A stretch of DNA of 64,000 bases from an uncultured Candidatus Rokubacteria bacterium (GCA_963758635.1 CAVWWD010000003.1:907184-971183); one strand, 5' to 3'. Shown: positions 8,841 through 63,990, counted from the first letter of the stretch. The notes: a model not told the origin generated them from the letters alone. Numbers and translations are program-made.

Positions 8841-10317
8841 ATGGCCGCCACGCGTCCGAGTTACGACAAGCTGATCTTCGAGCTGTCCGCGCCGGGGCGG
8901 TTCGCCCACTCGCTGCCCGCCGCCGACGTGCCGGTGACGGATCCCGCCGCGCTCCTGCCCGCCGCCTTCGTGCGGCCGGCCCCGCCCGAGCTGCCCGAGG
9001 TGTCCGAGGTGGACGTGGTCCGCCACTACTCGCGCCTGTCGCAGATGAACTACGGGCTCGACACGCACTTCTACCCGCTCGGCTCCTGCACGATGAAGTA
9101 CAACCCGAAGATCAACGAGGACATGGCGCGCCTGCCCGGCTTCGCGCGGCTGCACCCGCTCACCCCCGCGGCGGCCGCGCAGGGCGCGCTCCAGGTCATG
9201 CACGAGCTGGCCCGGGACCTCGCCGAGGTCTCGGGCATGGATCACGTCTCGCTCCAGCCCGCGGCGGGGGCGCAGGGCGAGCTGGCCGGCGTGCTGATGA
9301 TCCGCGCCTGGCACCTCTCCCGCGGCGAGCGGCGCCACAAGGTCCTCGTCCCGGACTCCGCGCACGGCACCAACCCCGCCACCACCGCGCTCGCCGGCTT
9401 CCAGGTGGTCGAGCTCACGTCCGAGGCGACCGGCGAGGTCGACCTCGGCGACCTCGAGAAGAATCTGTCCGAGGACGTGGCCGCGTTCATGATCACGCAG
9501 CCGAACACGCTCGGCATGTTCGAGTCGCGGATCCACGCAGATCACCGAGATGTGCCACGCCCGCGGCGTCCAGGTGTACATGGACGGGGCGAACTTCAAC
9601 GCGATCCTCGGCATCACGCGCCCGGGCGACCTCGGCTTCGACGTGTGCCACTTCAACCTGCACAAGACGTTCACGACGCCGCACGGGGGCGGCGGGCCGG
9701 GCGCGGGCCCGGTGGGCGTGAAGGCGCACCTCGCGCCGTTCCTGCCCACGCCGGTCGTGGCGCAGCGCGCGGACGGCGCCTACGACCTCGACTGGCGACG
9801 GCCGCAGTCCATCGGCAAGCTCGTCACGTTCTGGGGCCACTTCGGCATGTTCGTGCGCGCCCTCGCCTACATCCGCACCATGGGCGGAGACGGGCTGCGC
9901 GCGGTGTCCGACAACGCCGTCCTCAACGCCAACTACGTGCTCCGGCGCCTCGAGGGCCACTACGACCGCTCGGCTCCCGGGCCGTGCATGCACGAGTGCG
10001 TCGTGTCGGCGCGGCGCCAGAAGAAGCTCGGCGTCACCGCCATGGACATCGCCAAGCGGCTCCTGGACCTGGGCTTCTACGCGCCCTCGACGTACTTCCC
10101 GCTGATCGTCGAGGAAGCGCTGATGATCGAGCCCACCGAGACGGAGTCCCGGGAGACCCTCGACGCGTTCTGTGACGCCCTGGTGCAGATCGCGCGCGAG
10201 GCCGAGACCGACCCCGCGGTCATCCACGAGGCTCCGGTGACCACGCCGGTGCGGCGGCTCGACCAGACGCTGGCCGCGCGGCGGCCGGTGCTGCGGTGGA
10301 CGCCGCCCGCCCGGTGA
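8841..10317 (+). pseudogene. gcvPB: glycine dehydrogenase subunit 2 interrupted by a single extra base near 9538
   Basis: N-terminal 230 aa in ORF 8841..10175, C-terminal 255 aa in ORF 9550..10317 (+1 frame); removing one c from cacg[c]agatcaccgag restores ...[28 protein letters not shown]. Confidence 0.75.
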
Positions 10318-11169
10318 CGCGCTTCCGCCTGCTCGTCACGGAGCCCCTCGACGGCGCCTGGAACATGGCGCTGGACGAGGCGCTCCTCCAGAGCCGGCTC
10401 GACGGCGACGGGGCGCCCACGCTGCGGTTCTTCGGCTGGTCGCCCCCCACCGTGTCGCTCGGCTTCGGACAGCGCCTCGAAGCGCGGCATCGACCATGAC
10501 GCCATCCGCCGTCTCGGACTGGGGTTGGTCCGGCGGCCGACGGGTGGGAGCGCCATCCTCCACGAGGGCCCGGACCTCGAGCTGACCTACAGCGTGATCG
10601 CGGGCGCCGCCGACTTCCCCGGCGCCGACGACCTGCTGGGCACGTACCGCTGGATCGGCGACGGCCTCTGCGCGGGCCTCGCAGCGCTCGGCGCGCCGGT
10701 GGAGATGGTGCCGGCGCAGCCGTCCGATCCCGCGACGATGCCCGCCTTCTGCTTCGCGCGAACGGGCTCGTACGAGCTCGAGGTGGCGGGGAAGAAGCTC
10801 GTCGGCAGCGCCCAGCGCCGCCAGGGCCGCGCGTTCCTTCAGCACGGCGCCATCATGCTCGGCGCCGACCCGGCCCGGCTCCGCCAGGTGTTCACGGGGG
10901 CGGCCGATCCGCTCGGCGGCATGACCACGCTCGAGGCCGTGCTCGGCCGCCGCCCGACGTTCGGCGAGGTGGCGGAGAAGCTCGCCGAGGGCATGGCCTC
11001 CGCCCACGGCATCGAGGTCGCGCCGGGCGGGCTCTCCGAGCGCGAGATGGCGGTGGCCGCGGGGCTCGTGGACGGAAAGTACGGCGCCGCGGAGTGGACG
11101 CGCGCGGGGCGCGTCGTCACCGACCTCGCGCGCGTGTCCGCCGGCTCGGCGACCGAGGGCGCCCGATGA
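10296..11169 (+). pseudogene. lplA: lipoate-protein ligase (LplA/LipB family) with a single-base frameshift near 10485
   Basis: ORF 10296..10499 (...PTVSLGFGQRLEA) continues in ORF 10525..11169 frame as GIDHDAIRRLGLGLVRRPTGGSAILH; follows the gcv operon. Confidence 0.65.
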
Positions 11170-11639
11170 CCGACGCGCGGCGGGAATTCCCGGACGCGCC
11201 GCGCGTGGGCGTCGGCGGCGTCGTCCTGGACGACACGCGCGTGCTCCTCGTCCGGCGGGGCCGGCCGCCAGGCCAGGGGCGGTGGAGCATCCCCGGCGGG
11301 CTGGTGGGGCTGGGCGAGAGTCTCGAGGACGCGGTGGTGCGGGAGGTCGAGGAGGAGTCCGGCCTCCGCGTGCGCGTCCTCGGCCTGTGCGGCGTCATCG
11401 ACCGCGTCATCCAGGACGCCGACGCCGGCCGGGTCCGCTATCACTACGTCATCATCGACTATCTCTCCGTGGTCGAGGGCGGTCGCCTGTGCGCGGGGAG
11501 CGACGCCGCGGAGGCGCGCTGGGTCCCGGTGGACGCCCTCGGCGACTACGACATCACCGACGGGGTCGCGGACATGGTGCGGCGGGCCGTGCGCCTGCGC
11601 GCCGAGCTGTCACAGGCCTCCGCGGGAAAGGACAACTGA
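11166..11639 (+). CDS. NUDIX hydrolase
   Basis: ATG 11166 overlaps the lplA stop (ATGA); Nudix box GGLVGLGESLEDAVVREVEEESGL. Confidence 0.7.
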   Translation: MTDARREFPDAPRVGVGGVVLDDTRVLLVRRGRPPGQGRWSIPGGLVGLGESLEDAVVREVEEESGLRVRVLGLCGVIDRVIQDADAGRVRYHYVIIDYLSVVEGGRLCAGSDAAEARWVPVDALGDYDITDGVADMVRRAVRLRAELSQASAGKDN

Positions 11640-19936: not shown

Positions 19937-21575
19937 GCCCCCGCGGCTCATCGCCGACGTCGCCCGCGACCTGGGCCTCGGCGAGGCCGAGTGGATGCCC
20001 TACGGCCGGTACAAGGCCAAGGTGCTGCTCGGCGCCCTCGAGGCCCGCCGCGCGCGCCCCGACGGCAAGCTCGTGCTCGTCTCCTCGATCACCCCGACGC
20101 CGGCGGGTGACGGCAAGACGACGATGACGATCGGCCTCGGGCAGGCCCTCTGCAAGGCGGGGAAGCGGGCGGTGATCGCGCTGCGCGAGCCGTCGATCGG
20201 CCCGACCCTCGGCATGAAGGGCGGCGGCACGGGCGGCGGCCGCTCGCAGGTCGTGCCCATGGACGAGATCAACCTGCACTTCACCGGCGACTTCCACGCC
20301 ATCACCTCCGCCAACAACCTGCTCGCCGCCATGATCGACAATCACCTCCACCACGGCAACGCGCTCGGCATCGACCCGCGCCAGGTGTTCTGGAAGCGCG
20401 CGCTCGACGTGAACGACCGCGCGCTCCGGAAGAACGTGCTCGGCCTCGGCGGCGCCATGGACGGCGTCCCGCGCGAGGGCGGCTTCCTCATCACCGCCGC
20501 CTCCGAGATCATGGCCGCGCTGTGCCTCGCCGAGAGCCTGGCCGACCTCCGGGCGCGGCTCGGGCGCATGGTGGTCGCGGTCACCCGCGAGGGGAAGCCC
20601 GTCGCCGCCGACGCCCTCGGCGTGACGGGGGCGATGACGGCGCTCCTGCGGGACGCCGTGCACCCGAACCTGGTGCAGACCATGGAGGGCACGCCCGCGC
20701 TCGTCCACGGCGGGCCGTTCGCCAACATCGCGCATGGGTGCAACTCGGTGGTGGCCACGCGGATGGCGCTCAAGCTCGGCGAGATCTGCCTGACCGAGGC
20801 GGGCTTCGCCACCGACCTCGGCGCCGAGAAGTTCTTCGACATCAAGTGCCGGTTCGCGGGCCTCTCCCCCGACGCCGCGATGATCGTGGCCACCGCGCGC
20901 GCCCTCAAGTACCACGGGGGCGTCGCGATCAAGGACCTCGGGCAGGAGGACGTGGAGGCGGTGCGCCGCGGCATCGACAACCTGGCCGCCCACGTCGAGT
21001 CGGTGCGGCAGTTCGGCGTGCCGGTGATCGTGGGCATGAACCGCTACCCCACCGACACCGCCAAGGAGTACGCGGTGGTGAGCGAGGCCTGCGCCCGGCT
21101 CGGGGTGCGCGTGGGATTCGCGGACATCTTCGCGCGGGGCGGCGACGGGGGGCAGGAGCTCGCGCGCGAGGTCCTGGACCTGCTCGACCGCGAGCCGTCG
21201 GCCTACAAGCCGCTCTACCCGCTGGACGCCTCGATCAAGACCAAGCTCTCGACCATCGCCACCCGGGTGTACGGCGCCGACGGCGTCTCCTACTCGGCGC
21301 GCGCCGAGCGCCAGATCGCCCAGGCGGAGGCGCTGGGCTACGGCGGCGTGCCCGTCTGCGTGGCCAAGACCCAGCGCTCGCTGAGCGACGACCCGTCGCG
21401 GCTGGGACGGCCGCGGGGGTTCACGGTCGCGGTCAACGAGGTCTACATCTCGGCGGGCGCCGGCTTCCTGGTGGCCCTCACCGGCGACATCACCACCATG
21501 CCCGGCCTGCCGCGCCGGCCGAACGCCGAGAACGTCGACGTCGCTCCCGACGGGGCCATCACTGGCCTTTTCTGA
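19902..21575 (+). CDS. fhs: formate--tetrahydrofolate ligase
   Basis: ORF 19902..21575, 557 aa, full-length Fhs similarity (PTPAGDGKTTMTIGL). Confidence 0.9.
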   Translation: MATSTPTPATPEPPRLIADVARDLGLGEAEWMPYGRYKAKVLLGALEARRARPDGKLVLVSSITPTPAGDGKTTMTIGLGQALCKAGKRAVIALREPSIGPTLGMKGGGTGGGRSQVVPMDEINLHFTGDFHAITSANNLLAAMIDNHLHHGNALGIDPRQVFWKRALDVNDRALRKNVLGLGGAMDGVPREGGFLITAASEIMAALCLAESLADLRARLGRMVVAVTREGKPVAADALGVTGAMTALLRDAVHPNLVQTMEGTPALVHGGPFANIAHGCNSVVATRMALKLGEICLTEAGFATDLGAEKFFDIKCRFAGLSPDAAMIVATARALKYHGGVAIKDLGQEDVEAVRRGIDNLAAHVESVRQFGVPVIVGMNRYPTDTAKEYAVVSEACARLGVRVGFADIFARGGDGGQELAREVLDLLDREPSAYKPLYPLDASIKTKLSTIATRVYGADGVSYSARAERQIAQAEALGYGGVPVCVAKTQRSLSDDPSRLGRPRGFTVAVNEVYISAGAGFLVALTGDITTMPGLPRRPNAENVDVAPDGAITGLF

Positions 21576-21664
21576 TCGCTGCCGCCGGTGAGCGCGCTCC
21601 GGCGCGTGTTATACTTACCGCCGCTCGCTGCTCCGCGCGAGCGTCGTCCCGTGCTTCCGCACTC

Positions 21665-22655
21665 ATGATCCACGTCGACCATCTGACGAAGCGCTACGGG
21701 CCGGTCACGGCCATCCGCGACGTCTCCTTCACGGTCGACGAGGGGAAGGTCGTCGGCTTCCTCGGCCCCAACGGGGCGGGCAAGTCGACGACGATGAAGA
21801 TCCTCTCGTGCTTCATGCCGGCCTCGGGGGGCACCGCGACGGTGGCGGGCTTCGACGTCTTCCGCCAGTCGATGGAGGTGCGGCGCCGGATCGGGTACCT
21901 CCCGGAGAACGCCCCCCTCTACCTCGACCTCTCGGTGGCCGCGTACCTGGACTTCGTCGCCGAGATCAAGGGCGTGTCCCGTGGCGCGCGGAAGGCGCGG
22001 GTGGCCGAGGTGATGGACCGGTGCTTCATCGCCGACATGAAGCACCGGACTGATCGGCAAGCTGTCGAAGGGCTACCGCCAGCGCGTGGGCCTCGCCCAG
22101 GCGCTCCTCGGCGATCCCAAGGTCCTGATCCTCGACGAGCCCACCATCGGGCTGGACCCGCGGCAGATCACCGACATCCGCGCGCTCATCAAGTCGCTGG
22201 CCGGGCAGCACACGGTGATCCTGTCGACCCACATCCTCCCCGAGGTGCAGATGGTGTGCGACGGCATCGTGATCATCAACCGCGGCCGCATCGTGGCCCA
22301 GGGCACCCAGGCGCAGCTCGTCGAGCAGGTGTTCCCCACCGCGCGCGTGGAGCTGGCCGTGGGCGGACCCGCCGACGCCGTCGCCGCCGCGCTGCGCGCG
22401 GTGCCCGGCGTGCTCCGCGTGGCGCCCATCGAGCCCGTTGGCGCGCAGAACGGCGTGGTCGGCTTCGCCGTCGAGTCGCCCCGCGAGCACGACCTGCGCG
22501 AGGAGCTGGGCCGGCTCGTGCTCGCCCGCGGCTGGCGTCTCATCGAGCTGCACCAGGCCGGCCTCAGCCTGGAGGACGTGTTCATCCGCGTGGTCGCGGG
22601 CGAGGAGGCGGCGGAGACGGCCACGATCGAGATGACCGCCGCCGAGGGCGCCTGA
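21665..22655 (+). pseudogene. ABC transporter ATP-binding protein (GldA-like) with an extra base at 22049
   Basis: Walker A GPNGAGKST before, signature LSKGYRQRV and Walker B ILDEPT after the shift (ORF 22086..22655 frame); the frames differ by exactly one base, an inserted a. Confidence 0.75.
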
Positions 22656-23422
22656 TGCGCTGGCTCCCCGTGTTCAAGAAGGAGATGCGGCTGTACTTCG
22701 GCTCGCCCGTGGCCTACGTGGTGTGCACGTTCTTCCTGGTCATCTCCGGCTTCTTCTTCAGCCAGATCTTCTACTTCTACACGATGCAGTCCATGCAGGC
22801 CACGATGAACCCCATGGCCGGCTCGAACCTGACGCCGACCGAGGGGATCCTCCGGCCGCTCTTCAACAACATGAGCGTGGTGCTGCTGTTCTTCATGCCG
22901 ATGCTCACGATGCGGCTCTTCGCCGAGGAGGCGAAGTCGGGGACGATGGAGCTGCTGCTGACCTATCCGGTGCGGGACGGCGAGATCCTGTTCGGCAAGT
23001 TCCTCGCCGCCGGCCTCCTGTACGCGCTCATGCTGGCCTTGACCCTGCTCTATCCGGGCCTGGTCGGGCGCTTCGCGCGGCTCGAGTGGGGCAGCGTCCT
23101 CACCGGGTACCTCGGCATGCTCCTCCTCGGCGCGGCGTTCCTCAGCATCGGGATCTTCCTGTCCGCCCTCACCGAGAACCAGATCGTCGCCGGCTTCTCC
23201 ACGTTCGGCGTGCTGCTGGGGCTCTGGGTCATCGGCTGGGGCGCGGAGTTCGCGAGCGGCACCCTGCGGAGCGTGCTTCAGTACCTCTCCCTGATCGAGC
23301 ACATGGACGGCTTCGGCAAGGGCGTGCTCGACACCAAGGACATCGTCTACTACGTCTCGGTGAGCGCGTTCGCCCTGTTCCTGGCCCTGCGCGCCGTCGA
23401 GGCGAAGCGCTGGAAGGGATAG
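22655..23422 (+). CDS. ABC-2 type transporter permease (GldF-like)
   Basis: ATG 22655 overlapping ATPase stop; six hydrophobic segments. Confidence 0.75.
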   Translation: MRWLPVFKKEMRLYFGSPVAYVVCTFFLVISGFFFSQIFYFYTMQSMQATMNPMAGSNLTPTEGILRPLFNNMSVVLLFFMPMLTMRLFAEEAKSGTMELLLTYPVRDGEILFGKFLAAGLLYALMLALTLLYPGLVGRFARLEWGSVLTGYLGMLLLGAAFLSIGIFLSALTENQIVAGFSTFGVLLGLWVIGWGAEFASGTLRSVLQYLSLIEHMDGFGKGVLDTKDIVYYVSVSAFALFLALRAVEAKRWKG

Positions 23423-30282: not shown

Positions 30283-30922
30283 TCACGCCACCGCGCCGAT
30301 CACGTTCCGGCACCACGTCTCCACCGCCGCGCCCAGCGGGAACAGCTTGCCGAAGAAGAAGTGGTCGGCGCCCTCGATCACCGTGACGGTCGCGGCGGGC
30401 ATGCGTCGGCCCAGGTCCTCGAGCGCGTCGACCGGACAGTACTGGTCTCGGGAGCCCGCCACGACGAGGGTGGGGTGGACGGCCGGCGCCGCGCTCACGT
30501 CGAGCATCGAGAGCGGCGGCGCGACCAGGCACAGCCCGGCCAGCGCGGCCGGGTCCTCGCCGGCGACCCGCGCGGAGATCCACGCCCCGAACGAGTAGCC
30601 GGCCAGCGCGATCCGACGCTCCGCGCCGACCCGAGCGGCGAGGCCAGCGAGGGCCGCCCGGACGTCCGCCTGTTCCGCGCCCTTGCCGTCACGGGGTCCG
30701 GTCGATGCCCCGACCCCCCGGAAATTGAAGCGCAGCGTGGCCAGGCCCAGCCCCCAGGCTACCTCGGCGCACCGGATCACGACGGGGTTGTCCATGTCGC
30801 CCCCGTACAGCGGGTGCGGATGGCAGACCACGAGCCCGCCGGCGGGCGATGCGGGGAGCGCCGATCCTCGCCTCGAGGCGCGGCCCTCCGGGAACGTCCA
30901 CGGTCAGGGGAGCTTCGTCCAC
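30283..30922 (-). pseudogene. COG2945-type alpha/beta hydrolase with frameshift near ~30845
   Basis: N-terminus MDEAPLTVDVPGGPRLEARIGAP (ORF 30689..30922 frame) joins ...AGGLVVCHPHPLYGGDMDN...RFNFRGVGAS (ORF 30283..30831) after a 1-nt shift. Confidence 0.5.
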
Positions 30923-31008
30923 GGGTGGTCCGTCCTTGCTCGCTGCGGCGCGGCGGGAATAATCCCGTCCGGCTGGCCGTCAGAGGGTTCGGAGGTATAC
31001 TTCACGCG

Positions 31009-31518
31009 ATGTTCGGGCTCGGCTGTTCCTGGTATCGATCCCGCCTCGAAGCGCAGGCCAGCGGACGACTCGAGGGCCGCGCCGCGGTCGGCCTCAGCCG
31101 CCATCTCGGTCGCTGCGAGGCCTGCCGGCGTACGGTCGAGGCGTTCGCCCGCATGCGCTCCCTGGTGCGAAGCGCGGCGGCGGCGCCCGGCCCGTCCGAC
31201 TGGACCGGGTTCTGGCCGGCGGTGCGCGTCCGCATCGAGACCGAGGCGCCACGGCCCATCCGCGACTCGTGGTGGCTGCCCTTCTGGAAGCCGATCTGGG
31301 GGCACCCTCGGCTCGCCACCTCGGCGGCGATGGCCGCCGCGCTCCTGATGGTGATCTCGCTGCAGCCCGTGGGCAACGACGGGTCGGCCATGCCGGTGAC
31401 GGTCCACGACGTGACGGCCAGCGATCCGCGGGGCAGCGTCATGGTGTACTCCAGCCAGGACGCTACCGTGATCTGGATGTTCGCCGCCGATACCAGCGGC
31501 GCCGGCACCGACGACTGA
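31009..31518 (+). CDS. putative anti-sigma factor (zf-HC2 type, membrane-anchored)
   Basis: ATG 31009 after ggagg RBS; HLGRCEACRR zinc-finger motif; C-terminal TM; no adjacent sigma-factor gene. Confidence 0.45.
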   Translation: MFGLGCSWYRSRLEAQASGRLEGRAAVGLSRHLGRCEACRRTVEAFARMRSLVRSAAAAPGPSDWTGFWPAVRVRIETEAPRPIRDSWWLPFWKPIWGHPRLATSAAMAAALLMVISLQPVGNDGSAMPVTVHDVTASDPRGSVMVYSSQDATVIWMFAADTSGAGTDD

Positions 31519-31665
31519 TCGCCCCGCCTCCTCACGACCCTGACGGGTTCGCCAGCTTTTCCTTCGGCCTGGATGTTCGCCGCCGATACGAGCAGTGCGG
31601 CCGGCGACGGCTGATTGGCGTCCCGGCGTCCTCATGACCCTGACGGGTTCGCCAGCTTTTCTCTC
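31470..31665. repeat. ~100-bp imperfect tandem duplication spanning the 3' end of the anti-sigma gene and the 3' end of cpoB
   Basis: Units ...ggatgttcgccgccgata...cctca(c/t)gaccctgacgggttcgccagcttttc repeated at ~31470-31562 and ~31563-31665. Confidence 0.65.
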
Positions 31666-31689
31666 GCCAGCGGCGCTTCCTGCGGACTG

Positions 31690-32493
31690 GGGGAAGTGCT
31701 CGATCAGGTATCGCAGCCGCGCCTCCGCGAGGCGCGGCTGCTTGAGCTCGATCAGAGCCAGGGCCTCCTTGTAGAGGGCCGTCGGCACCCGCTCACCTCT
31801 CGGATAGTTCACGACGACACGCCGGAACTCCTGAACGGACTGCTCGAGGTGACGCGTCGCCTCGTCCCGGCGGCCAGCGTCGGAGCTGGCTCGCGCCATC
31901 CCGAAGTACGCCTCGCCCACCGAGTACTGGGCCTTGTCGGCGAGCGGGGAATCCGGGAACCTGCGCACGAACTCCCGGAAACCGGAGATGGCGAGCGGAT
32001 AGTTGCCCTTGGTCAGGTCGAGCGACGCGGCCTGGAAGGCCTGCTCGGCGCTGGTTCCGTCCGCCGCCCCCCGCGGCGCGGCGGGGGCGATCGGGGGCGT
32101 GGGCGCCGTGGGCTGGCCGGCGGGCGCGCTTCCACGAGCGGCCACCTGACGGCTCAGCGCGTCCAGGCGCCCCGACACGTCCTCGAGCCGGGCCGACACC
32201 CGGCCGAGCTCGGCGGCGATGTTGTCGAGCCGGGTCGACAGCGCGTTGACCTGTCGCGCCGTCTCCGCCGACTCCGTCCGTGTGCGGCGATCGGTCTGGC
32301 CGACCGACGTCTCCGTCTCGGCCCGGCTCCGGTGCACCGCGAGCGTGAGGGCGTTCAGGTCCTTGCGGAGCTGGGCCACGTCCTGGGGCAGGCTCTCGTC
32401 GCCGGTGGCGCAGCCGCCGGCCATGGCCGCCGTCGCGAGGAGCCCGAAAACGACGAAGGGGAGCCCGAGGCTCCCCTTCGGGTGCTGCCGCAC
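31690..32493 (-). CDS. cpoB: Tol-Pal system protein CpoB/YbgF (lipoprotein, coiled coil + TPR); 3' end uncertain
   Basis: Part of ORF 30904..32577; GTG ~32493 just after pal stop; lipobox LLATAAMAGGC, coiled-coil then TPR; frame stays open to 30904 so the true stop is unclear. Confidence 0.5.
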
Positions 32494-32507
32494 CGCGGGC
32501 GCTCGAC

Positions 32508-33105
32508 TTAGCGTGCCTTCACCAGGAAGTGGGCGTGCCGGTTGCGCTGCCAGCAACTCTCGCTCTTCTCGGTGCACACCGGGCGCTCCTCGCCGTAGGA
32601 GATGATCGTGATGCGATTGGCCTGGACGCCCTGGGTCACCAGGTAGTTCATCGTCGCCTTCGCCCGGCGCTCGCCGAGCGCCAGGTTGTACTCGTTCGTG
32701 CCGCGCTCGTCACAGTGTCCCTCGATCAGGACCAGCATGGTGCCGTTCGACTTGAGCCAGCTCGAGTTGTCGTCGAGGATCTTCGCGTCGCTCGGACGGA
32801 TGTCGTACTTATCGAAGTCGAAGTACACGTCCTTGAGCGCCGTGTTCTCCGCGAACTCGCTGGGCGCGGGCGGCGTCGCGGGCGCGGCGGTCGCCGGCGC
32901 GGGCGGCGGGGGCCGGCGCGGGGGCGGAGGCCGACGGCGTCGACGGTGAGGCGGCCGCAGGGGCGCTCGGGGCCATCGCGGCGGGGGCCGCGGGAGCCGG
33001 TGCGGATGCCGCCGTCGTGGCGGGCCGCTTCGGGCACCCCACCAGGAACAGCGCGGCGATGAGCAGGGGCATCACCAGGAGCGAGCTACCGCGTCCGTGC
33101 CGCAT
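32508..33105 (-). pseudogene. pal: peptidoglycan-associated lipoprotein Pal with frameshift in the Ala/Pro-rich linker (~32895-32905)
   Basis: N-terminus MRHGRGSSLLVMPLLIAALFLVGC (ORF 32809..33153 frame, ATG 33105 after ggagg RBS); OmpA-like C-terminus ...PSEFAENTALKDVYFDFDKYDIRP... (ORF 32508..32828) one base out of frame. Confidence 0.7.
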
Positions 33106-33213: not shown

Positions 33214-34554
33214 TCACGGAAGCCGCGGGGACCAAGCGGGACTTGCCGCGTCTCCCGCGCCGCGCGGCACCGCGTGCTGCTCGGAGCCGTCGGCGAGCAT
33301 CGTGAAGAGCCCGATGCCGCGCCCGCGCGTGGACTGGAACACGAGGTGACGGCCGTTCGGCGACCAGGACGCGCTCTCGTTGTCGCCGGGCCCCGCGGTG
33401 AGCCGCCGCGCACCGCTGCCGTCCGGGCCCACCGCCCACAGGTCGTGATTGCCCTGCCGCGAGGTGTAGACGATCGCGTCGCCCTTGGGCGACCAGCGCG
33501 GCTGGGTGTTGAAGCCGCCCTGGGTGATGCGCCGGACGTTCGTGCCCTCCGCGTCCATCACGTAGACCTGTGCCGCGCCGCTGCGATCCGACACGAAGGC
33601 GATCTCGCGGCCCGTGGGCGACCACGACGGCTCGGTATCGATCCCCGGATGCGTGGTCACCCGGCGGAACGTACCGGCGGCCACGTTCAGGACGTAGACC
33701 TCCGGGTTGCCGTCCTTCGACAGGGTGAGGGCCACCGATCGCCCATCCGGGCTCCACGCGGGCGAGCTGTTGATGCCGAGGTGGCCGGCGAGGAGCTGCA
33801 CGGGGCGGCGCTCGAACGGGAACATGCGGTAGAGGTACGGATAGCCGCGCATGAACGACGTGAACGCGAGCGAGCGCGTGTCGGGGCTCCACGCCGGCGA
33901 CATGTTGATCGACTGGTTCGCGGTGAGGGCGGCCACGCCCACCCCGTCGTAGTCCATGAGCTGGAGCTCGCGCACGCCGCGCTGCGGGGTGATGAACGCG
34001 ATCTTGGTGTCGGCGATGCCGGCCTCGCCCGTGAACTGGAGCACCACCTCGTCGGCGATGCGGTGGGCGAGCCGCCGGGACTCGGCCGGCGGCACCGCGA
34101 ACGTCTTGGTCGCGATCTGGCGCTGCTCGGGCGACGTGAGGTCGTAGAGGCGCATCTCCGCCTCCGCGCGGTCCGCGCCCGCCCGCACCACCCCGTGGAG
34201 CGCGGCGTGCGCGCCCGCCGCGGCGGCGTCGGCCCACGCCTTGCGGAGCGCCTCGGCGTCGCCGGGCGGCGGCGCGGGGGCCCCCGCCACCACGTTGAAG
34301 AGCGCGGAGAACGTGAGGTCCTTGCCCGCGACCTCGGAGAGCCGGCGGCCCAGGGTGGGATCGGCGGCGGCGCCCGTGACCGCGAACTCCGGCACGAAGA
34401 TGTTCAGCCGCTGGGCGCCGCTGCGCATCACGTTCAGGAACACGTCGGCGCCCTGCGATCGCGCGGGGGGCGCGCCGGTGAGGACGAGCCCCGCCGTCAC
34501 CACGAGCACGGCGGCGAGCAGGGCCAGGAATCCGCGGAAGGGGCTCATCGGCAT
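33214..34554 (-). CDS. tolB: Tol-Pal system beta-propeller protein TolB
   Basis: C-terminal 446 codons of ORF 33214..35349; ATG at 34554; repeated ...SPAWSPDG.. / WSP.G.. propeller motifs. Confidence 0.85.
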   Translation of the reverse strand: MPMSPFRGFLALLAAVLVVTAGLVLTGAPPARSQGADVFLNVMRSGAQRLNIFVPEFAVTGAAADPTLGRRLSEVAGKDLTFSALFNVVAGAPAPPPGDAEALRKAWADAAAAGAHAALHGVVRAGADRAEAEMRLYDLTSPEQRQIATKTFAVPPAESRRLAHRIADEVVLQFTGEAGIADTKIAFITPQRGVRELQLMDYDGVGVAALTANQSINMSPAWSPDTRSLAFTSFMRGYPYLYRMFPFERRPVQLLAGHLGINSSPAWSPDGRSVALTLSKDGNPEVYVLNVAAGTFRRVTTHPGIDTEPSWSPTGREIAFVSDRSGAAQVYVMDAEGTNVRRITQGGFNTQPRWSPKGDAIVYTSRQGNHDLWAVGPDGSGARRLTAGPGDNESASWSPNGRHLVFQSTRGRGIGLFTMLADGSEQHAVPRGAGDAASPAWSPRLP

Positions 34555-37615: not shown

Positions 37616-37629
37616 ACGCCGGCCGGACC

Positions 37630-39426: not shown

Positions 39427-40153
39427 ATGAGAGGCACGCGGATCAGCTTGGCGTTGATCGGGGCCGTGACGTTCCTGTCCGTCGGATGCGCGACGAGGGC
39501 GTACGTGCGGGAGCAGGTGCAGCCTACCCAGGCGCAGCTGGCCCAGACCAACCAGCGGGTCGACGCGCAGGAGACTCAGCTGAAGCAGAACGTCGAGCCT
39601 CTCCGAGACCAGCCGCATGCGGCTCGACACCCTCGACGGGCGCATGGGCGAGACGCAGACGACGGCGAACCGCGCGGCCGCTCGCGCCGAGGAAGCGGCG
39701 GGCAGCGCGGCCGAGGCCAACCGGAAGGTCGACTCCGTGTCGGAGCAGGTACGCGACCTCGACGGGCGGCTCACGGCGCGGATCGCCAACCGCAACAAGT
39801 TCAGCTCCCTCGACACCCGCAGCATCTTCTTCGACTCCGGCAGGTCTGACCTGAAGGACGAGGGCATGACGATGCTCCTCGAGGTGGCCAAGGCCCTGAA
39901 GGAAGACCCCAACGCGATCGTTGAGCTGCGCGGGCACACCGATGGTGTGGGCAACGAGCGGCAGAACGTGCTCCTCTCCCGGGAGCGCGTGGACGCCGTC
40001 GTGCGCTATCTCGTGCAGAAGGAAGGCGTCGAGCTGCGGCGCATCCACTCGGTGGGACTGGGCAAGGCCGTGCCCGTGGCCGATAACAACACCCGCGAGG
40101 GTCGCGCCAAGAACCGGCGGGTCGACGTGACGTTGCTGTCTCCCCAGAGCTGA
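39427..40153 (+). pseudogene. OmpA-family lipoprotein (coiled-coil + OmpA_C) with frameshift near 39603
   Basis: ATG 39427 after aaggagg RBS, lipobox FLSVGC (ORF 39250..39849 frame); OmpA C-domain ...ELRGHTDGVGNERQNVLLSRERV in ORF 39617..40153. Confidence 0.6.
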
Positions 40154-41858: not shown

Positions 41859-42812
41859 TCAGCGGGCGGCGCGGGCGCGGGCGGCGATGAGGGGATTAGC
41901 GAGGGCGGCCGTTCCCACCAGGACGGCCTCGGCGCCCGTGGCAAGGGCGGCCCGCACGCGCTCCGGCGTGGTGAGCCCGCCCTCGGCGAAGACAACCCGG
42001 CTCCACGCGCCCGCGCGGCGCCACGCCAGGAGCTCGTCGACCTGGACCCGGGAATGCTCGTACACGTCCGCGCCGGAGATGGCGGCCACCTCGCGTCCCG
42101 GTCCCGGGAACGCCGGGGTCCCGTCGGGCTTGACCACGCGGCGCTCGAGGCTCGAGACGAGCGCGAAGCCGTCGACCCAGGGCGCGAGGCGCCCCGCGAG
42201 CTCGTGGAGCGCCCGCGGACTCTGGGCGCTGCCGAGCCGGGCGACCACGGGGCGCGTCCCCACGGCGCGCCGCACCTGCTGGGCAACGTGGGCGGCCAGC
42301 GGCGGCTGCTCGAACACCATCGGGGCGCGGTCGACGGTCGACGCCGGGCAGGCGAGGTGCACCTCGATCACGTCCGCCCCCGCCTCGCCGGCCCAGCGCG
42401 CGCACTCGGCGTAGTCCAGGGCGAGGCGCTCGCCATCGCCATCTGGCACCGGGGTGCCGGCCACGCTGACGCTCAGGAGCTGCGTCGCGGAGAGCCGGCT
42501 CTTGGCCCGGCGCACGTCGGCACGCCACTCGTCGGGCGCCGCCGACGGCAGGCCGAAGGACCACGCGAGGGTCACGCTCCCGGGGTCGGCCCGGCGGGGC
42601 GCCCGCGGCTCGATCACCGCGGGGTCGCCGAAGTGGCAGAAGGCGAGGTTGGGCGGCGAGAAGGCCGCGCGAGCCACGCTCCGGACGGTCGCGTACGTGA
42701 GGAGGCCGTAGCCGAGCCGCGCGTAGCCCTGGATCCACCGCGCGTTCGGCAAGGGCCCCGCCGCCACGCCCACCGGACACTCCACCGGCAGGTCGAAGAG
42801 GCGGGTGGGCAT
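41859..42812 (-). CDS. dihydroorotate dehydrogenase family (DHOD/DPD-like TIM-barrel) protein
   Basis: C-terminal 317 codons of the 1140-aa stop-free frame 41859..45281, from MPTRLFDLPVECPVGVAAGP; ...GGLTTPERVRAALATGAEAVLVGTAAL. Confidence 0.55.
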   Translation of the reverse strand: MPTRLFDLPVECPVGVAAGPLPNARWIQGYARLGYGLLTYATVRSVARAAFSPPNLAFCHFGDPAVIEPRAPRRADPGSVTLAWSFGLPSAAPDEWRADVRRAKSRLSATQLLSVSVAGTPVPDGDGERLALDYAECARWAGEAGADVIEVHLACPASTVDRAPMVFEQPPLAAHVAQQVRRAVGTRPVVARLGSAQSPRALHELAGRLAPWVDGFALVSSLERRVVKPDGTPAFPGPGREVAAISGADVYEHSRVQVDELLAWRRAGAWSRVVFAEGGLTTPERVRAALATGAEAVLVGTAALANPLIAARARAAR

Positions 42813-42940
42813 CGGAGGAACCTTCCGCGGCCGCGCCGGGAGCCGGGGCGGGTGGGCCGCGTTCCACGCGTGCGAGCGCCCGGTGCGGTACGCGATCAGG
42901 TGCCGACCCTCCCACAAGGCGGTCGCTTCCGGCTGCTCTC

Positions 42941-43095
42941 GCAGGGGGAGCGGTTGGTTCCACGGCATTACCATATCCGCTCCTCTCGGCTCCAGGCGGT
43001 TGGTTCCACGGCATTGCCATATTCGCTTCGCTCGCCTTCGGCTCGCTGCGCACTGCAAGTCGCCTCCGGCTCGCTTCGCACTGCGGGTGTCATGG
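42941..43095. repeat. composite short repeat element, copy B (inverted relative to copy A at 5731-5860)
   Basis: Reverse complement contains gcagtgcg(a/c)agcgagccg(a/g)agg units and two aatgccgtggaaccaacc tails; intergenic between DHOD-like and LLM genes. Confidence 0.7.
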
Positions 43096-43105
43096 TGGGC
43101 GGCGC

Positions 43106-44096
43106 TCAGGCGAACGCCGGCAGGACCTCCTTCGCGAGCAGCGTCAGCTCGCGCATGATGTGGCGGTGCGGCATGCCGGGGAAGAACAGCCGGCAGATCA
43201 GGTGCGTGGCGCCGTAGCGCTCGACGAACGGCTTGAGGTCGCGGATCACCTGGTCGGGCCCGCCGATCAGGAACCGGTCCTTCTTGATCGGTGTCGAGGT
43301 CGGTGGCGATGGACGCGTCGATGAACGGATGCTTCCACCCGCCCGCGTACTCGCGCCGGTACGAGATCATGATGTGCCGCTCGGCGAGCTCGCGGGCCTC
43401 GGCGTCGGTGTCGGCGATGATCACGTCGCGCGTGAGCGGCCACTCCGTCACCGGCTCGGCGCGGCCGGCGGCCGCGCGGTTGGCGAGGAACTGTTGCTTG
43501 CCCTGGAGCAGCCGCGCCAGGTCGGCGGTGGGGCCGGGGATCCAGTTGTCGGCGAGCGTGGCGGCGCGGCGCAGCGTGATGTCACCCCACCCGCCGATCC
43601 ACACCGGCGGGTGCGGCTTCTGGACGGGCTTGGGCTCGAGCCGGCCCGTCACCTGGTAGTAGCGCCCGGCGAACGAGAAGCTGTCCTGCGTCCACAGGCC
43701 GCGGAGGATGGCGAGCTGCTCCTCGAAGCGGGCCCCGCGCCTGTCCAGGTCCACGCCGTAGAGCGCGAACTCGTCGGGCTTGTAGCCGATGGCCGCGCCC
43801 AGCACCACCCGGCCCCCCGAGATCACGTCGAGCATGGCCACGTCCTCGGCGAGCCGGACCGGATGGTGGAAGGGGGCGACGACGATGTCCGTCCCGAGCG
43901 TCATCCGGGACGTGCGGGTGGCGAACCCGGCGAGCACGGTGAGGGGAGAGGGCCAGTAGTGATCGACCACCGAGTGGTGCTCCTCCATCCACACGGAGTC
44001 GAACCCGAGGTCCTCGGCGCGGACGACCTCCTCGATCGCGTCGGTGTAGAAGTGTCCTCCCTCGATGGGGATGAACCCGACCTTGAGCCTCGCCAT
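43106..44096 (-). pseudogene. LLM-class (luciferase-like) flavin-dependent oxidoreductase with frameshift near ~43288
   Basis: MARLKVGFIPIEGGHFYTD...GGWKHPFIDASIATDLD in the long frame; C-terminus KKDRFLIGGPDQVIRDLKPFVERYGATHLICRLFFPGMPHRHIMRELTLLAKEVLPAFA* in an adjacent frame. Confidence 0.6.
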
Positions 44097-44113
44097 GCCG
44101 GCCTGCCTCGGGC

Positions 44114-45031
44114 CTATAGCTCGCCGGCCTCCTCGAGCGCCTGCTTCAGCCGCTGCCGGTCCTCGGGCCCCACGGGCGTGAGCGGCGGGCGCATGTGGCC
44201 GTGCTCGAGGATGCCCTGCATCACCAGGACTTCCTTGCAGCGCGCCCGGTAGTCGCGGATCGGCGTGGCGAAGATCGCGTCGACCAGGCGCTGGATGCGA
44301 TCGCCCCGCTCCCGCGCCGTCGCCCAGTCGCCCCGCATGGCCGCGGCGTGCACGGCGACGTGGCTGGCCGTGGTCACCGCGCACGCCCCCAGCAGCGCGC
44401 CCTCGGCGCCGAGGAGGTACGACTCCCAGATGAAGTTGTCGTTGCCAGTGAGGATGGTGATGCGGCGAGGCGCGGAGCGGATCACGTCGACGATCTCGCG
44501 GAAGCGCTTGGCGTCGAAGAGGGCCTCCTTGATCGCCACCACCTGGGGGATCTCGATGAGCCGCGCCAGCGTCTCGTCCGCGAAGTTGGTGCCGCCCAGC
44601 GCGGGCTGGAGCGTGAAGATGACCATGGGCAGGCCCGCGGCGTCCGCGATGGCCTTGTGGTACGCGTACGGAACCTCCGCGGGGAGCGGCTGGCCCAGGT
44701 ACGCGGTGATCGGGAAGACGAGGAAGGCGTCGGCCCCCGCCTCGCGATAGTCCTTCGCGTACTTCACGGCCTGGGCGGTGAACGAGGCGCCGAGGCCGGC
44801 CACGATCGGGATGCCGCGCCCGGCCAGCTCCTCGCGGTAGATGGCGAGGACGCGGAGCCGCTCCTCGTGCCAGAGGTGCGGGCCCTCGCCCGTGTCCACG
44901 TTGACCGCCACCGCCTTGATCCCCTGACCGGCGATCCAGCGGATGTAGCGGCGCAGCGCGGGCTCGTCGATCTGCGCGTCCGCCGTCATCGGGAGGACGG
45001 TGGCGGGGACGATGCCGGCGAGGTCGAGCAT
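44114..45031 (-). CDS. dihydrodipicolinate synthase family (DapA-like) lyase
   Basis: ORF 44114..45031, 305 aa, DapA/NAL family similarity. Confidence 0.7.
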   Translation of the reverse strand: MLDLAGIVPATVLPMTADAQIDEPALRRYIRWIAGQGIKAVAVNVDTGEGPHLWHEERLRVLAIYREELAGRGIPIVAGLGASFTAQAVKYAKDYREAGADAFLVFPITAYLGQPLPAEVPYAYHKAIADAAGLPMVIFTLQPALGGTNFADETLARLIEIPQVVAIKEALFDAKRFREIVDVIRSAPRRITILTGNDNFIWESYLLGAEGALLGACAVTTASHVAVHAAAMRGDWATARERGDRIQRLVDAIFATPIRDYRARCKEVLVMQGILEHGHMRPPLTPVGPEDRQRLKQALEEAGEL

Positions 45032-45039
45032 GGCGGGGC

Positions 45040-45227
45040 TCGCACGCGTCGCTGGCGAGCTTGCCGTTCACGCCCCAGTTCGACTTCTCCACGTCCTGGA
45101 AGACGATGTGGACCTGGTCGGCGGTGGTCTTGCCGATCTTGACCATCGCCTCGGTGATGGCGGCGGTGATCTCGCGCTTCTGCTGGTCGGTGCGGCCCGC
45201 GTACCACTGGACGGTGATGTTCGGCAT
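45040..45227 (-). CDS. 4-oxalocrotonate tautomerase family protein; no in-frame stop nearby (3' end unresolved)
   Basis: MPNITVQWYAGRTDQQKREITAAITEAMVKIGKTTADQVHIVFQDVEKSNWGVNGKLASD within ORF 41859..45281; N-terminal Pro1 signature. Confidence 0.45.
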
Positions 45228-45403
45228 GTGCGCCCCCTTGTCTCGCGGCGACGGCGAGGTGGATGGACCGACGGCGCGCATTATCCCACGTGCGGCGGCG
45301 CGGCGCCGCGCGGCGAGTTCGTGCGGCCGCTTGACGCCTCGGGCGCGTTCCGCCTAGGGTGAACCAAGCGTTTTTCGATCGCCGTCCCGCGAGGAGGACA
45401 GCC

Positions 45404-47281: not shown

Positions 47282-48149
47282 ATGAGAAAGTCAGCCGTCG
47301 CAGCGCTCGCTCTGACCCTGCTGTGTCTCCTTCCCGCGATCGCGTCCGCCCAGGTGAAAGGCGTGTACTGGACGGCGAGCGGCGTGTTCGGCCCGTTCCC
47401 CCTCAACGCGTTGATCCCGTCGCTTCCGGCGGACAAGTCCCGCGAGGTCACCCTGCCGGTCAACATGTGGATCATCGATCACCCCAAGGGGCTGGTCGTG
47501 TTCGACACCGGCAACAACGTCGCCGATCTCGGACGGCAAGTGCAAGTCGTACTGGGCCGCGGGCCTGTGCGACCTCCTCAAGCCGAGCCAGAAGCGGGAC
47601 GACGTGATCGACATGCAGCTCAAGAAGCTCGGGTTCTCGACGGATCAGGTGAAGGCCGTGATCTCCTCCCACGCGCATCTCGACCACATCGGCAACATCA
47701 AGCTGTTCCCGAAGGCCGTTCACGTGATCCAGAAGAAGGAGCTCTACCAGGCCTGGTGGCCCGAGAAGTTCCAGGGGCGCGAGGGCGGAGTCTTCGTGCT
47801 GGGCGACTTCGACGGTCCCGCGCGCGGCTTCAACTACCTCGAGCTCGAGGGCGACTACGACCTGTTCAGCGACGGCAGCATCATGATCATCACCACGCCG
47901 GGGCACACCCTGGGCCACCAGTCGGTGAAGGTGAAGCTGCCCAGCGGCAAGACGATCGTGATGACGCAGGACGCGGTGTGGGTGAAGGAGAACCTCGAGG
48001 GGTTCCCCGCCGGCATCAACTACAGCGTCAAGGACTACGAGGCGTCGGTCCAGCGGCTCAAGATGATCCGCGACCTCGAGAACGCGGAGCTCTTGTTCGG
48101 CCACGATCCCGATCAGTTCAAGCAGGGCGGCAACAAGTGGCATAGGTAG
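47282..48149 (+). pseudogene. secreted MBL-fold N-acyl-homoserine-lactonase-like (AiiA family) hydrolase with frameshift near ~47527
   Basis: ATG 47282 after gaggagagg RBS, signal peptide; SHAHLDH motif and ITTPGHTLGH in ORF 47604..48149; N-terminus in ORF 47177 frame. Confidence 0.55.
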
Positions 48150-59969: not shown

Positions 59970-60096
59970 CGGGCCGGGTGATCGGCGCCTTGACCGGTCG
60001 GTCTCGAGCGCGGCAGTATCTCCACCATGGCCGGCGCCGTCGGATCGCGCGCCGCCATCGCTCAGCCGTCAACGTCGCCCACACCAAGGAGCTTGA

Positions 60097-60295
60097 GCAT
60101 GGAGAGGAAGCGCGTGTTCGGGACGGGGGAGAGCTGCTCGTCCACCAGCTCGTGGCGCAGGGGGTCAATTACGCGTTCACCAACACGGGGAGCGCCGAGG
60201 CCGGCTTCTTCAACGGTCTCCTCACCGTCCCCGGCGTGCAGCCGATCCTCCTCCTCGCCGAGTCGCTGGTGCTGTCCGCCTCGGACGGCCAATGA
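60097..60295 (+). pseudogene. N-terminal remnant of a thiamine-diphosphate-dependent enzyme (~65 codons, frameshifted, truncated)
   Basis: MERKRVFGTG... joins GELLVHQLVAQGVNYAFTNTGSAEAGFFNGL (TPP_enzyme_N-like) after a shift in a G-run near 60130; stop at 60295. Confidence 0.3.
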
Positions 60296-61769: not shown

Positions 61770-61852
61770 AGGCCGGCGTCGTCAGCTAGACTCGCGCGCT
61801 CCAGAACGTCATCCCGAGCTCATCGAAGATCCGGCGCGCCGACGCGGCGTGC

Positions 61853-63990
61853 TCAGGCGAGACGCCGAGCGAGCACCCGGTGGCAGTGACCGATCTCGGG
61901 TGGCGCGCCCAGCTCGAGCGCGGCGGCCAGCGCCTCCTCGGCGCGTGGCTGCGCCGCCGCGGTGTCGCCGTCAGCGAGCAGGATCTCCGCTTCCAGGCGC
62001 AGGAGCGGCGCGCAATAGCCCTGCGCCCCGCGCTCGGCCGCCGCGGCCGTGCCGGCGGCGACGACGCGCCGCGCGTCGGAGGTTCGCCCGCCCGCAAGGT
62101 AGGCCGCCGCCGTCACCGTCCCGAACCGCGTCCACTGCATGAGCGCTGGCGGCGTGCCGCTCGAAGGCGCGGTCGAGGTATTCGAGGCCGCGTGCCCGGT
62201 CGCCGGCGAGGCATCGGGCCCATGCCAGGTAGACGCCGTTGGCGAAGATGCCGTGCAGGACGTCGTGCTCCTCGGCGATGGCCAGGCCCCGCTCGAGGAC
62301 GGGAATGGCCGCCGGCAGGTCGCCGCGGAGCAGGTGCGTGTAGCCGAGGAACGCGTTGGCGAGCGCGAGGCTGGACGAGTGACGGATCTCCGCGGCCACG
62401 CGCAGCGCCTCGCCGCCTGTGGCGAGCGCGGCGTCAAAGCGGCCGAGCGCGGCCTCGACTTCCGATCGCCACCCGCACAGGCTGACGAAGATCGGGTAGA
62501 CGAGCCCGGGCTCGTGGCCGGCCGCCTCCGTGGCGAAGAGCCGGGCGCCCGCGTCGTGCTCGCGGATGGCCTCCTCGAGGCGGCCCATGTCGCGGTACGC
62601 GACGCCCATGACGAAGCGCGCGTAGCTGCGGGTCCGGAGGTCGGCGGTGTCGGCACCGGCGGCCGCCTCGCCTGCGAGCTGCAACGCGCTCGCCAGCGTC
62701 CCCGGGATCGCGTCCGCGAAGGCGATGGCCTGCGCCTGTCGGACCTGCACCTGCGCGAGCCGCGGTCCGGCCTCGAGACGGCGGGCCAGCGCCTCGACGC
62801 GTGCGCCCAGCTCGCCGAGGCCGTCCACGCGGTTCGTGGAGATCCGCGTGGACCAGAGCTCCAGGCACACGTCGAGCTCCAGCCGCGGGTCGGCGGCCTC
62901 ACCGAGGCGCTGCAGAGCGTCCATCGCCGCCTCGTAGAAGTCCACCGCCGGGCCGTGCCGCGCCTCCGCCTGCGCCTTGGCACCGGCGCGGTAGAGATAC
63001 GAGGCCGCAGGCTCCCACAATTCGCCGCGCAGGGCATGATGGGCGAGGACCTCCACGCTGATCGGGCCCTGTTCGCGGCTGCGAGCCTCGAGCGCGGCCA
63101 GCACGCCCGCGTGCAGCATGCGCCGCCGCTCGCGCAGCAGGCTCTGGTACGCGACCTCGAGGGTCAGCGCGTGCTTGAACGTGTACTCGAGCTCCGGGAA
63201 CAGGCTGGTCTCGTAGAGGAACTCGGCGGCCTGCAGCTGAGCGAGCCCGCGCCGCAGCTCGAGCGCCGCCATCTCGGCGACCGTCTCCAGGAGCGTGAGG
63301 GCGACCGTCTTGCCGATGACGGCCGCGGACTGGAGCAGGTGCTTGACGGGCGGCGGCAGCCGATCGATGCGCGCGGCGAGCACGGCCTGGACGGTCGCGG
63401 GAACGTGTGTCGTGTCGAGCGCCCTGGCGAGACGGAAGGAGCCGCGCTCGCCGACGAGGACACCGCTCTCGACCAGCGTGCGCACCGACTCCTCGAGGAA
63501 GAAGGGATTGCCCTCGGTCCGGTCGAGGAGCAGCCGCTTGAGCGGCTCGAGCGACCGGCTGGCGCCGAGGAGGCCGTCCAGCAGCTCCGCCGCGCTCGCC
63601 GTGCCCAGCGGATCGATGCGGAGCTGCGTGTAGTAGCTCTTGCCGCCCCAGGCGTGCCGGTACTCGGGCCGGTAGTTGACGAGCAGCAGCACGCGCGCGG
63701 TCGGCAGGCTCTCGACCAGGGTGTCGAGCAGCCCCTGCGTCTCGTCGTCGATCCAGTGCAGGTCCTCGAACAGGAGGGCGACGGGCTGGACGCGGCTCTC
63801 GCGCAGCACGAGGTGCTTGATGGCGTCGAAGGTCCGGTGCCGTCGCTCGACGGCCCCGAGCCCCTCCCATGACGGGTCGCCGCCGGGCGCGCCCAGCAGT
63901 ACCAGGAGCGGCACCAGGGCGGGCCGGAGGTTCTCGTCCAGCGTGAGCAGCTTGCCCGTGACCTTCTCCCGAACGACGCGCGCCTCGTCT
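61853..63990 (-). CDS. large signal-transduction regulator C-terminal part (NB-ARC/AAA-like ATPase + TPR); 5' end outside window; frameshift ~62150-62300
   Basis: ORF 61971..63914 stays open to the window edge; TPR C-terminus ...YCAPLLRLEAEILLADGDTAAAQPRAEEALAAALELGAPPEIGHCHRVLARRLA* is in the ORF 61853..63037 frame. Confidence 0.45.

Follow-up and report, generated by a model that had tools for sequence, protein, structure and literature searches.

Single-base frame shifts in conserved genes of a Rokubacteria metagenomic contig as probable consensus errors

In a stretch of 64,000 nucleotides from an uncultured Candidatus Rokubacteria bacterium (the window hereafter; lineage Rokubacteria/Methylomirabilota, 72% GC), conserved genes are repeatedly interrupted by single-nucleotide changes of frame. 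Are these frame shifts lesions in the genome of the organism, or errors in the assembly? An earlier note counted at least 15 such genes, against 13 confirmed and one further candidate here, and attributed the shifts to uncorrected indel errors rather than to pseudogenisation. This attribution is supported: the indels are absent elsewhere and repairable, the genes show no sign of decay, and the shifts stand in the deposited contig. We put the probability that the frame shifts arose as errors in the consensus of the deposited contig, and that the organism's genes are intact, at about 0.9.

Frame shifts located against near-identical genomes

Five contigs from other samples, 95.9–99% identical to the window and together spanning 47.4 kb of it, served as references; the contigs compared at base level are labelled L081, L082, L164, L165, L167 (NCBI GCA_040511415.1) and L168; L166, a further relative, comes from ENA and is named in the style of Flye contigs. 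The references are strains diverging by 1–4% and represent a different clone from the window strain. A TolB scan of GTDB species genomes and JGI metagenome contigs gave only relatives of at most 73% identity, which served for protein-level junctions and are unsuitable for base-level comparison. Two related Rokubacteria MAGs, L002 and L011, come from the catalogue of Nanopore MAGs of Microflora Danica, whose assembly used Flye and one round of Medaka (PMC12313526); to place the window in this catalogue as well would be a guess.

Against the near-identical contigs, 20 isolated single-base indels (17 insertions and three deletions) are found in 13 conserved genes, and base positions were pinned for 19 of them, the exception being the one in pal. 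GC3 frame plots and three-frame translations show a frame switch inside a conserved gene at each place listed by the earlier note. The positions listed earlier, given below in brackets, are accurate within about 50 bases, and the description of usually one inserted base, often C, G or A, is also borne out (six G, five C, five A and one T on the + strand). The density, given earlier as roughly one per 4 kb, is about one per 2.4 kb over the 47.4 kb covered by references.

The first broken gene, gcvPB for glycine dehydrogenase subunit 2 (8841..10317, + strand), has an extra G at 9537 (cac[G]cag; earlier ~9538), which is missing in both L081 and L082; without it, a 491-aa ORF differing by nine residues from the L081 protein is obtained. 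The lplA-type lipoate-protein ligase gene (10296..11169, +) has an extra C at 10483 (aag[C]gcg; earlier ~10485), missing in L081, whose orthologue matches Pfam LplA-B_cat and BPL_LplA_LipB, and the corrected ORF is of 290 aa. In the ABC transporter ATPase gene (21665..22655, +), the extra A is at exactly the listed position of 22049 (cgg[A]ctg); it is missing in L165, tblastn with ORFs of four distant loci changes frame at the same site, and correction gives 329 aa. The gene for a COG2945-type alpha/beta hydrolase (30283..30922, − strand) has an extra C at 30861 (earlier ~30845), about 20 codons past the start, again missing in L165; the corrected ORF has 212 aa, and about 20 homologues from Rokubacteria share its N-terminal stretch (..GGP.LEARL..), which precedes the HPHPLYGG motif.

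That essential operons are hit, as had been claimed, is confirmed for glycine cleavage and for five Tol-Pal genes. In ybgF/cpoB (31632..32493, −), an extra G at 31684, 17 codons ahead of the stop, is new to the list; it is missing in both L165 and L166, and the corrected ORF is intact. In tolA (34554..35349, −) the extra base is at 35304 (coding strand gtc[G]ctg; earlier ~35300) and in tolR of the ExbD family (35443..35881, −) at 35714 (coding strand cc[G]caag; earlier 35710); both bases are missing in L167 and L166, the corrected ORFs are of 264 and 145 aa, respectively, and in tblastn the ORFs of 30 distant loci change frame at the tolR site. The shift in pal (32508..33105, −; earlier ~32900) is confirmed by the architecture of the gene: the frame that encodes the signal peptide and lipobox (LFLVGC) differs from that of the OmpA domain, while both parts are in a single frame in all four homologues compared (L002, L004, L006 and L037). 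This +1 shift falls in an Ala/Pro-rich variable linker at about 32903–32908, where L166 has one base fewer, as does L165 in its last bases.

Downstream, four genes are compared with L164. The OmpA-like lipoprotein gene (39427..40153, +) has an extra A at 39589 (earlier ~39603), the gene for a luciferase-like monooxygenase (LLM oxidoreductase; 43106..44096, −) an extra T at 43288 (earlier ~43288), and the gene for a metallo-beta-lactamase-fold lactonase (47282..48149, +) an extra G at 47525 (earlier ~47527). All of these are missing in L164, and the corrected ORFs have 241, 329 and 288 aa, respectively; ORFs of eight distant loci change frame at the LLM site in tblastn. The gene for a Tat-signal cyclase (PF04199; 45949..47065, +) has seven indels in the L164 alignment. 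Shifts listed at ~46197, ~46385, ~46729 and ~47050 correspond to a deletion of T at 46174, a deletion of T at 46379, an insertion of G at 46724 and a deletion of G at 47042. Three extra A, at 45992, 46019 and 46029, are an addition to the list and mutually compensate. With the seven indels undone, a 371-aa ORF is obtained.

The last of the 13 is a gene for a class-3 cyclase/AAA_16/TPR regulator, whose C-terminal two thirds are found at 61786..64000 (−) and run off the window. It has two extra bases, one at 62150 (earlier ~62200) and one at 61864 that was not listed before. Both are missing in L168, the orthologue P0089 has 1015 aa, and the corrected reading stays open up to the orthologous stop.

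Several other places were examined and rejected. A tblastn "junction" at 41571 is a false positive, as L164 is collinear there, and frame switches at ~49900, 55680, 58440 and 1700–4300 are ordinary gene boundaries. Fragmented AhpC/TSA calls at 26.9–28.0 kb are not frameshifts; two adjacent thioredoxin-fold genes with in-frame UGA for selenocysteine are present in the window there. An Rfam scan of the whole window gave no match. The claim that the frame shifts explain many of the long spurious ORFs holds for a few read-throughs, namely 8841..10175, 30904..32577 and parts of 20522..23422 and 41859..45281; for example, the spurious 557-aa ORF at 30904..32577 exists because of the ybgF shift. Long spurious ORFs occur just as often in the first 9.5 kb, which has no frame shift, and are mainly due to the 72% GC.

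Errors or lesions

All 19 pinned indels are absent from L081, L082, L164, L165, L167 and L168, and those overlapping L166 are absent there too. The contigs without the indels come from three independent short-read-style assemblies (JGI 3300038383, NCBI GCA_040511415.1 and ENA k141) and another long-read-style ENA contig, in the 96–99% identity range. Every broken gene is intact in the orthologues of other assemblies; for example, a JGI contig of 236 kb, with proteins 95–98% identical, encodes full-length TolR (145 aa), TolA (262 aa), TolB (444 aa) and Pal (189 aa). Since near-identical genomes lack the stray bases, these are almost certainly sequencing or assembly errors. L166 has many frame-breaking indels of its own, different from those of the window, in the same genes, indicating that such errors do occur in assemblies of this population.

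The indels are specific to this assembly and are present in the public record: the deposited contig of 1,082,291 bp (NCBI and ENA) itself contains the frameshifts. Among its called genes are a truncated C-terminal GcvPB fragment of 255 aa and a regulator, P0088, that terminates in a frameshifted read-through peptide. In protein look-ups, repaired GcvPB and LplA were absent from the public record, and a 444-aa read-through ORF had no match to an exact protein.

The bases do stand in the deposited sequence, and with references that differ by 1–4%, strain-specific real mutations would be formally possible; the case for errors is an indirect one. The indels could then be a recent burst of frameshifts, by genome decay or a mutator, inactivating Tol-Pal, glycine cleavage and others. 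In accord with such a reading, the window has one lesion that is likely real, and this is the sole candidate. It is the N-terminal stump of a TPP-enzyme gene (59978..60295, +), matching positions 2–57 of 119 of Pfam TPP_enzyme_N with 24.9 bits, a score below the cut-off. In L168, the C-terminus of a full TPP-enzyme gene stands ahead of the same GCCAATGAACGT junction, which suggests an internal deletion; as the gene is cut short by the end of L168, the size of the deletion, probably about 1.4 kb, is estimated from the 104-aa stump. A ribosome-binding site and an ATG at 60099 are in the frame neighbouring TPP_enzyme_N, and a candidate loss of one base in the G5 run at 60125–60129 (earlier ~60130) would plausibly join the two.

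Decay of the broken genes, however, leaves no trace other than the indels. Undoing the indicated bases restores a full ORF, with start, stop and no internal stop, in all 12 genes with a pinned base. There are 20 single-base indels yet no nonsense codon in the 42 compared genes, and the ratio of synonymous to nonsynonymous substitutions in broken genes (114:50) is as conservative as that in their intact neighbours (243:133); apart from the indels, the affected genes are under purifying selection. The 13 genes hold single-base indels only; nonsense codons, relaxed selection and lesions shared with related strains were all looked for and not found, and no event is common to any of the five related assemblies. 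Furthermore, 17 of the 20 events are insertions, whereas mutation in bacteria favours deletions. An essential envelope system would have been struck in five genes together, and three A insertions within a 37-nt stretch of the cyclase gene would have restored the frame by chance. A real burst is therefore very unlikely.

Mass pseudogenisation is known from reductive genome evolution, as in Mycobacterium leprae and recent symbionts. The window resembles such genomes in that a large share of its conserved genes, about one in five, is disrupted. Unlike them, it has no nonsense mutations, relaxed selection or insertion-sequence elements (none of the last was found in the window); the lesions are private to one assembly, and essential envelope genes are struck repeatedly.

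The shifts could also be read through by programmed ribosomal frameshifting or other recoding. Shifts of +1 are present, and the UGA-selenocysteine genes are real recoding in the same window. Nevertheless, these proteins are each read from one frame in orthologues of 96–99% identity and in distant homologues, so that neither a shift nor a slippery site conserved in near or far orthologues was found; no slippery motif is common to the sites, and the 13 genes are unrelated. The probability of recoding is negligible.

Spectrum and possible origin of the indels

Gene fragmentation by indels is well documented in long-read assemblies and low-coverage MAGs (PMC9262707, PMC12007338, PMC12313526). The window resembles assemblies with long-read (Nanopore or PacBio CLR) errors in several respects: isolated single-base indels split conserved genes into adjacent frames, the 1.08-Mb contig is very long for a soil/groundwater-type population, and short-read assemblies of this population lack the indels, while the sister contig L166 is similarly damaged. 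Gene-fragmenting indel errors in long-read assemblies were reportedly described by Watson and Warr in 2019. The classical residue of Nanopore reads consists of deletions in homopolymers, and homopolymer-length error is also typical of 454 and Ion Torrent. L166 fits the Nanopore residue: it differs from the window at 68 places, and at 51 of these it lacks a base.

The indels of the window, on the other hand, are not of this type. The corrections do not cluster in homopolymers, for which a check had been proposed: only one of the 20 indels lies within a run of four or more, and four of the 17 insertions duplicate a neighbouring base, versus 44–52% expected for random insertions (P about 0.02–0.07). 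Because of the non-homopolymer signature and the 17:3 bias toward insertions, the platform is uncertain. GATC is found within 3 nt of six of the 20 sites versus 1.5 expected, the top of 136 4-mers (P = 0.003, uncorrected); the association with this methylation motif is suggestive, but loses significance after correction for the 136 4-mers.

The spacing of the indels is clumped (variance/mean 2.8), with seven in the single 1.1-kb cyclase gene. The cyclase-lactonase stretch at 45.9–48.1 kb holds eight of the 20 indels in 2.2 kb, including all three deletions; its GC is lower (68%), its divergence from L164 is higher (4–6%), and substitution divergence peaks in the cyclase region. It could be that most indels are errors while this stretch is an island that was acquired horizontally and is genuinely decaying in this strain. 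In comparison with L164, however, the cyclase gene shows 33 synonymous versus 10 nonsynonymous substitutions and no stop after undoing the indels, and has therefore been under selection throughout the divergence; moreover, a consensus of mixed reads is expected to be worst precisely in a strain-variable region, an effect described for collapsed alleles (PMC8445201). We regard a decaying island as very unlikely.

Indel artefacts also arise when alleles or strains that differ are collapsed to a single consensus (PMC8445201). The window is similar to such cases in that the indels are densest where strains differ most, in the cyclase region, and dissimilar in that they are no nearer to substitutions relative to the reference strains than random positions are. 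To explain the clumping by errors, an extra assumption of locally poor coverage or strain mixture is required.

Probably, the 1.08-Mb contig represents a Rokubacteria population and was assembled from reads that were prone to error and most likely long, and insufficient coverage or polishing would have left isolated single-base insertions and a few deletions in the consensus. In the strain-variable, lower-GC cyclase/lactonase stretch, where errors are densest, the consensus would probably have been drawn from fewer or mixed reads. We infer both the platform and the low or mixed coverage as the cause.

Meaning for the organism and its phylum

If the insertions were nevertheless real, a burst of +1 insertions, for example by a polymerase or repair defect, would have occurred in this Rokubacteria lineage too recently to leave other traces, and would have inactivated Tol-Pal and glycine cleavage along with a dozen further functions; we consider this highly improbable. 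As consensus errors, the frame shifts themselves hold no new biology, and their meaning is one of data quality. Their spectrum, which is insertion-biased, context-independent and clumped in a strain-variable region, is relevant to polishing tools that focus on homopolymers. About one fifth of the genes in the window, including the essential ones for Tol-Pal and glycine cleavage, would be miscalled as pseudogenes, split genes or spurious long ORFs, and such miscalls make gene loss in this uncultured phylum look greater than it is and depress estimates of completeness and coding density.

Frame shifts in conserved genes

The 64-kb window has a GC content of 68–75% along its whole span, and because of this it holds 265 overlapping open reading frames (ORFs) of at least 80 aa; a TolB query assigns it to Candidatus Rokubacteria/Methylomirabilota, the closest species-representative match having 73% identity. 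Strand and frame were assigned along the window by a codon-position GC plot, in which the frame switches within conserved genes at every site that an earlier note had named from the sequence. In three-frame translations, the N- and C-terminal halves can be recognised in frames next to each other. Furthermore, tblastn of query ORFs from 38 Rokubacteria loci against the window placed frame changes at ~22055 (4 loci), ~35704 (30 loci), ~43287 (8 loci) and ~46370 (2 loci).

The affected bases were located by aligning the window to near-identical contigs from other samples (95.9–99% identity), recovered by exact-protein look-ups, and taking isolated single-base differences within coding sequence. 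The references are L081, L164, L165 and L168 from JGI sample 3300038383, L082 and L167 from NCBI GCA_040511415.1, and L083, an ENA contig with a MEGAHIT-style (k141) name; they cover 47,387 bases of the window in total, and in every one of them the orthologues are called as full-length, with the expected Pfam domains. Single-base insertions are found in gcvPB (G at 9537), lplA (C at 10483), an ABC ATPase gene (A at 22049), a COG2945 hydrolase gene (C at 30861), ybgF (G at 31684), tolA (35304), tolR (35714), an OmpA-like gene (A at 39589), an LLM oxidoreductase gene (T at 43288), a lactonase gene (G at 47525) and a regulator gene (61864 and 62150). The cyclase gene has seven indels: A insertions at 45992, 46019 and 46029, T deletions at 46174 and 46379, a G insertion at 46724 and a G deletion at 47042. 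In pal, the lipobox and the OmpA domain lie in separate frames, while homologues have both in one; from this architecture a shift is certain, its base falling somewhere within a variable linker. The disrupted N-terminal stretch of the COG2945 hydrolase is conserved in about 20 homologues, and the JGI gene caller picks a late start for this gene.

These results confirm, and slightly extend, the frame shifts of the earlier note, whose coordinates are 0–50 nt from the positions pinned by the reference alignments. Its proposal that the shifts account for many long spurious ORFs holds for a few, which are read-throughs; most are due to GC content. No frame anomalies were seen in the stretches 11.9–15.4 kb and 50.8–60.3 kb, where near-identical references are lacking, and the proteins there match Pfam models end to end. 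Single-base indels also occur between genes (e.g., 26865, 35400, 40175, 45780, 47248 and 49901), where they are indistinguishable from real strain polymorphism.

GcvH, GcvPA, TolQ, Lgt and other window proteins are all on one public contig of 1,082,291 bp (NCBI, ENA). The record of this 1.08-Mb contig includes a truncated 255-aa C-terminal GcvPB fragment (ORF 9550..10317), the repaired 491-aa GcvPB is not on record by exact-sequence look-up, and the source contig's own call of the regulator, P0088, ends in the out-of-frame peptide made by the 62150 insertion. The frame shifts are therefore already present in the public record and are not later introductions. P0088 (837 aa) begins midway through the cyclase domain, as compared with its 1015-aa orthologue P0089, which hints at one or more further disruptions in the regulator N-terminus, just beyond the 3′ end of the window.

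Further differences from related contigs and putative selenoprotein genes

An extra DinB_2-family gene of ~510 nt, at 4958–5466 of L081, is missing at 2543/2544 of the window, a presence/absence difference between strains. Strains also differ by dense multi-base indels at 5737–5880 (the 3′ end of a YdjM-like gene and the spacer before gcvT) and 11568–11634 (the 3′ end of a NUDIX gene), one including a 27-nt repeat-like insertion; these resemble genuine variation in length more than errors. At gathering score, Rfam gave no family in the whole window, including no glycine riboswitch at 5880–5940, upstream of the gcvT-H-PA-PB operon.

At 59978–60295 (+) lies a ~100-aa N-terminal stump of a TPP-dependent enzyme, with a junction at ~60288. 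Since the C-terminus of the full enzyme precedes the same GCCAATGAACGT junction in L168, an internal deletion of ~1.4 kb probably occurred in the window's strain or assembly. The additional shift proposed at ~60130 is plausible, because a G5 run is present and the other frame has an RBS and ATG upstream.

Two adjacent thioredoxin-fold genes, at 26958–27518 (+) and 27515–28042 (+), have one in-frame TGA each, exactly at the expected position of the redox-active Cys: FTAT-U-IKE in the BCP/peroxiredoxin-like gene (27174–27176, +) and FWATW-U-PTC in the TlpA/ResA-like gene (27722–27724, +). L165 retains both TGAs, and in three assemblies each of the two genes is split by the gene caller. Cys in place of TGA gives one full-length AhpC-TSA match per gene, and a hairpin follows each UGA. 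These are likely selenoproteins rather than pseudogenes.

Origin of the frame shifts

The confirmed coding indels consist of 17 insertions (G6, C5, A5 and T1 on the + strand) and three deletions. The prediction that corrections cluster in homopolymers, which the earlier note raised as a check, fails, because just 4 of the 17 insertions copy an adjacent base (44–52% expected for random insertions) and a single event lies in a run of at least four (47042, GGGG to GGG). Several insertions split short runs, e.g., CC to CGC and GGG to GCGG, at about the chance frequency. GATC occurs within 3 nt of 6 of the 20 sites (1.5 expected), the top of 136 4-mers and not significant after correction; three insertions newly create it. 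The distance from indels to strain substitutions is not shorter than for random positions. The indels are clumped (variance/mean 2.8 in 2-kb bins): the first 9.5 kb is free of them, 30.8–35.8 kb contains six and 45.9–47.6 kb eight. In this last stretch divergence is the highest, and GC content the lowest, of the whole window. Thin or strain-mixed local read support is likely to underlie the clumping; an analogous effect is known for collapsed alleles (PMC8445201).

A related strain's long-read-style contig with a Flye-style name, L166 (ENA ERZ25039541 contig_61133), aligns to 31666–38400 at 96.6% identity and is far more damaged, with TolQ, TolR, TolA, TolB, Pal and Lgt all split. Its bias is opposite to that of the window: at 51 of the 68 indel differences L166 lacks bases and at 17 it has additional ones, and its many other frame-breaking differences are mostly of deletion type.

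Deleting or restoring exactly the bases indicated by the references gave intact ORFs in 12 of 12 cases, and codon-by-codon comparison found no nonsense substitution in 42 genes. Comparison with orthologues gives 114 synonymous and 50 nonsynonymous changes for the broken genes, and 243 and 133 for intact ones; even the cyclase gene, despite its seven indels, has 33 against 10. The three A insertions at its 5′ end cancel one another within 37 nt, which looks like noise, not history. The events are private to the window's contig, those in tolR, tolA and ybgF being absent even from L166, and they affect five Tol-Pal genes as well as two genes in the cluster for glycine cleavage and lipoylation. 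Taken together, these observations argue, with a probability of about 90%, that the frame shifts are consensus errors, and so the earlier reading as uncorrected indel error is supported, apart from the homopolymer expectation. Gene fragmentation of this kind is known from long-read assemblies and low-coverage long-read MAGs (PMC9262707, PMC12007338, PMC12313526). As an assembly artefact, the feature is of low biological interest.
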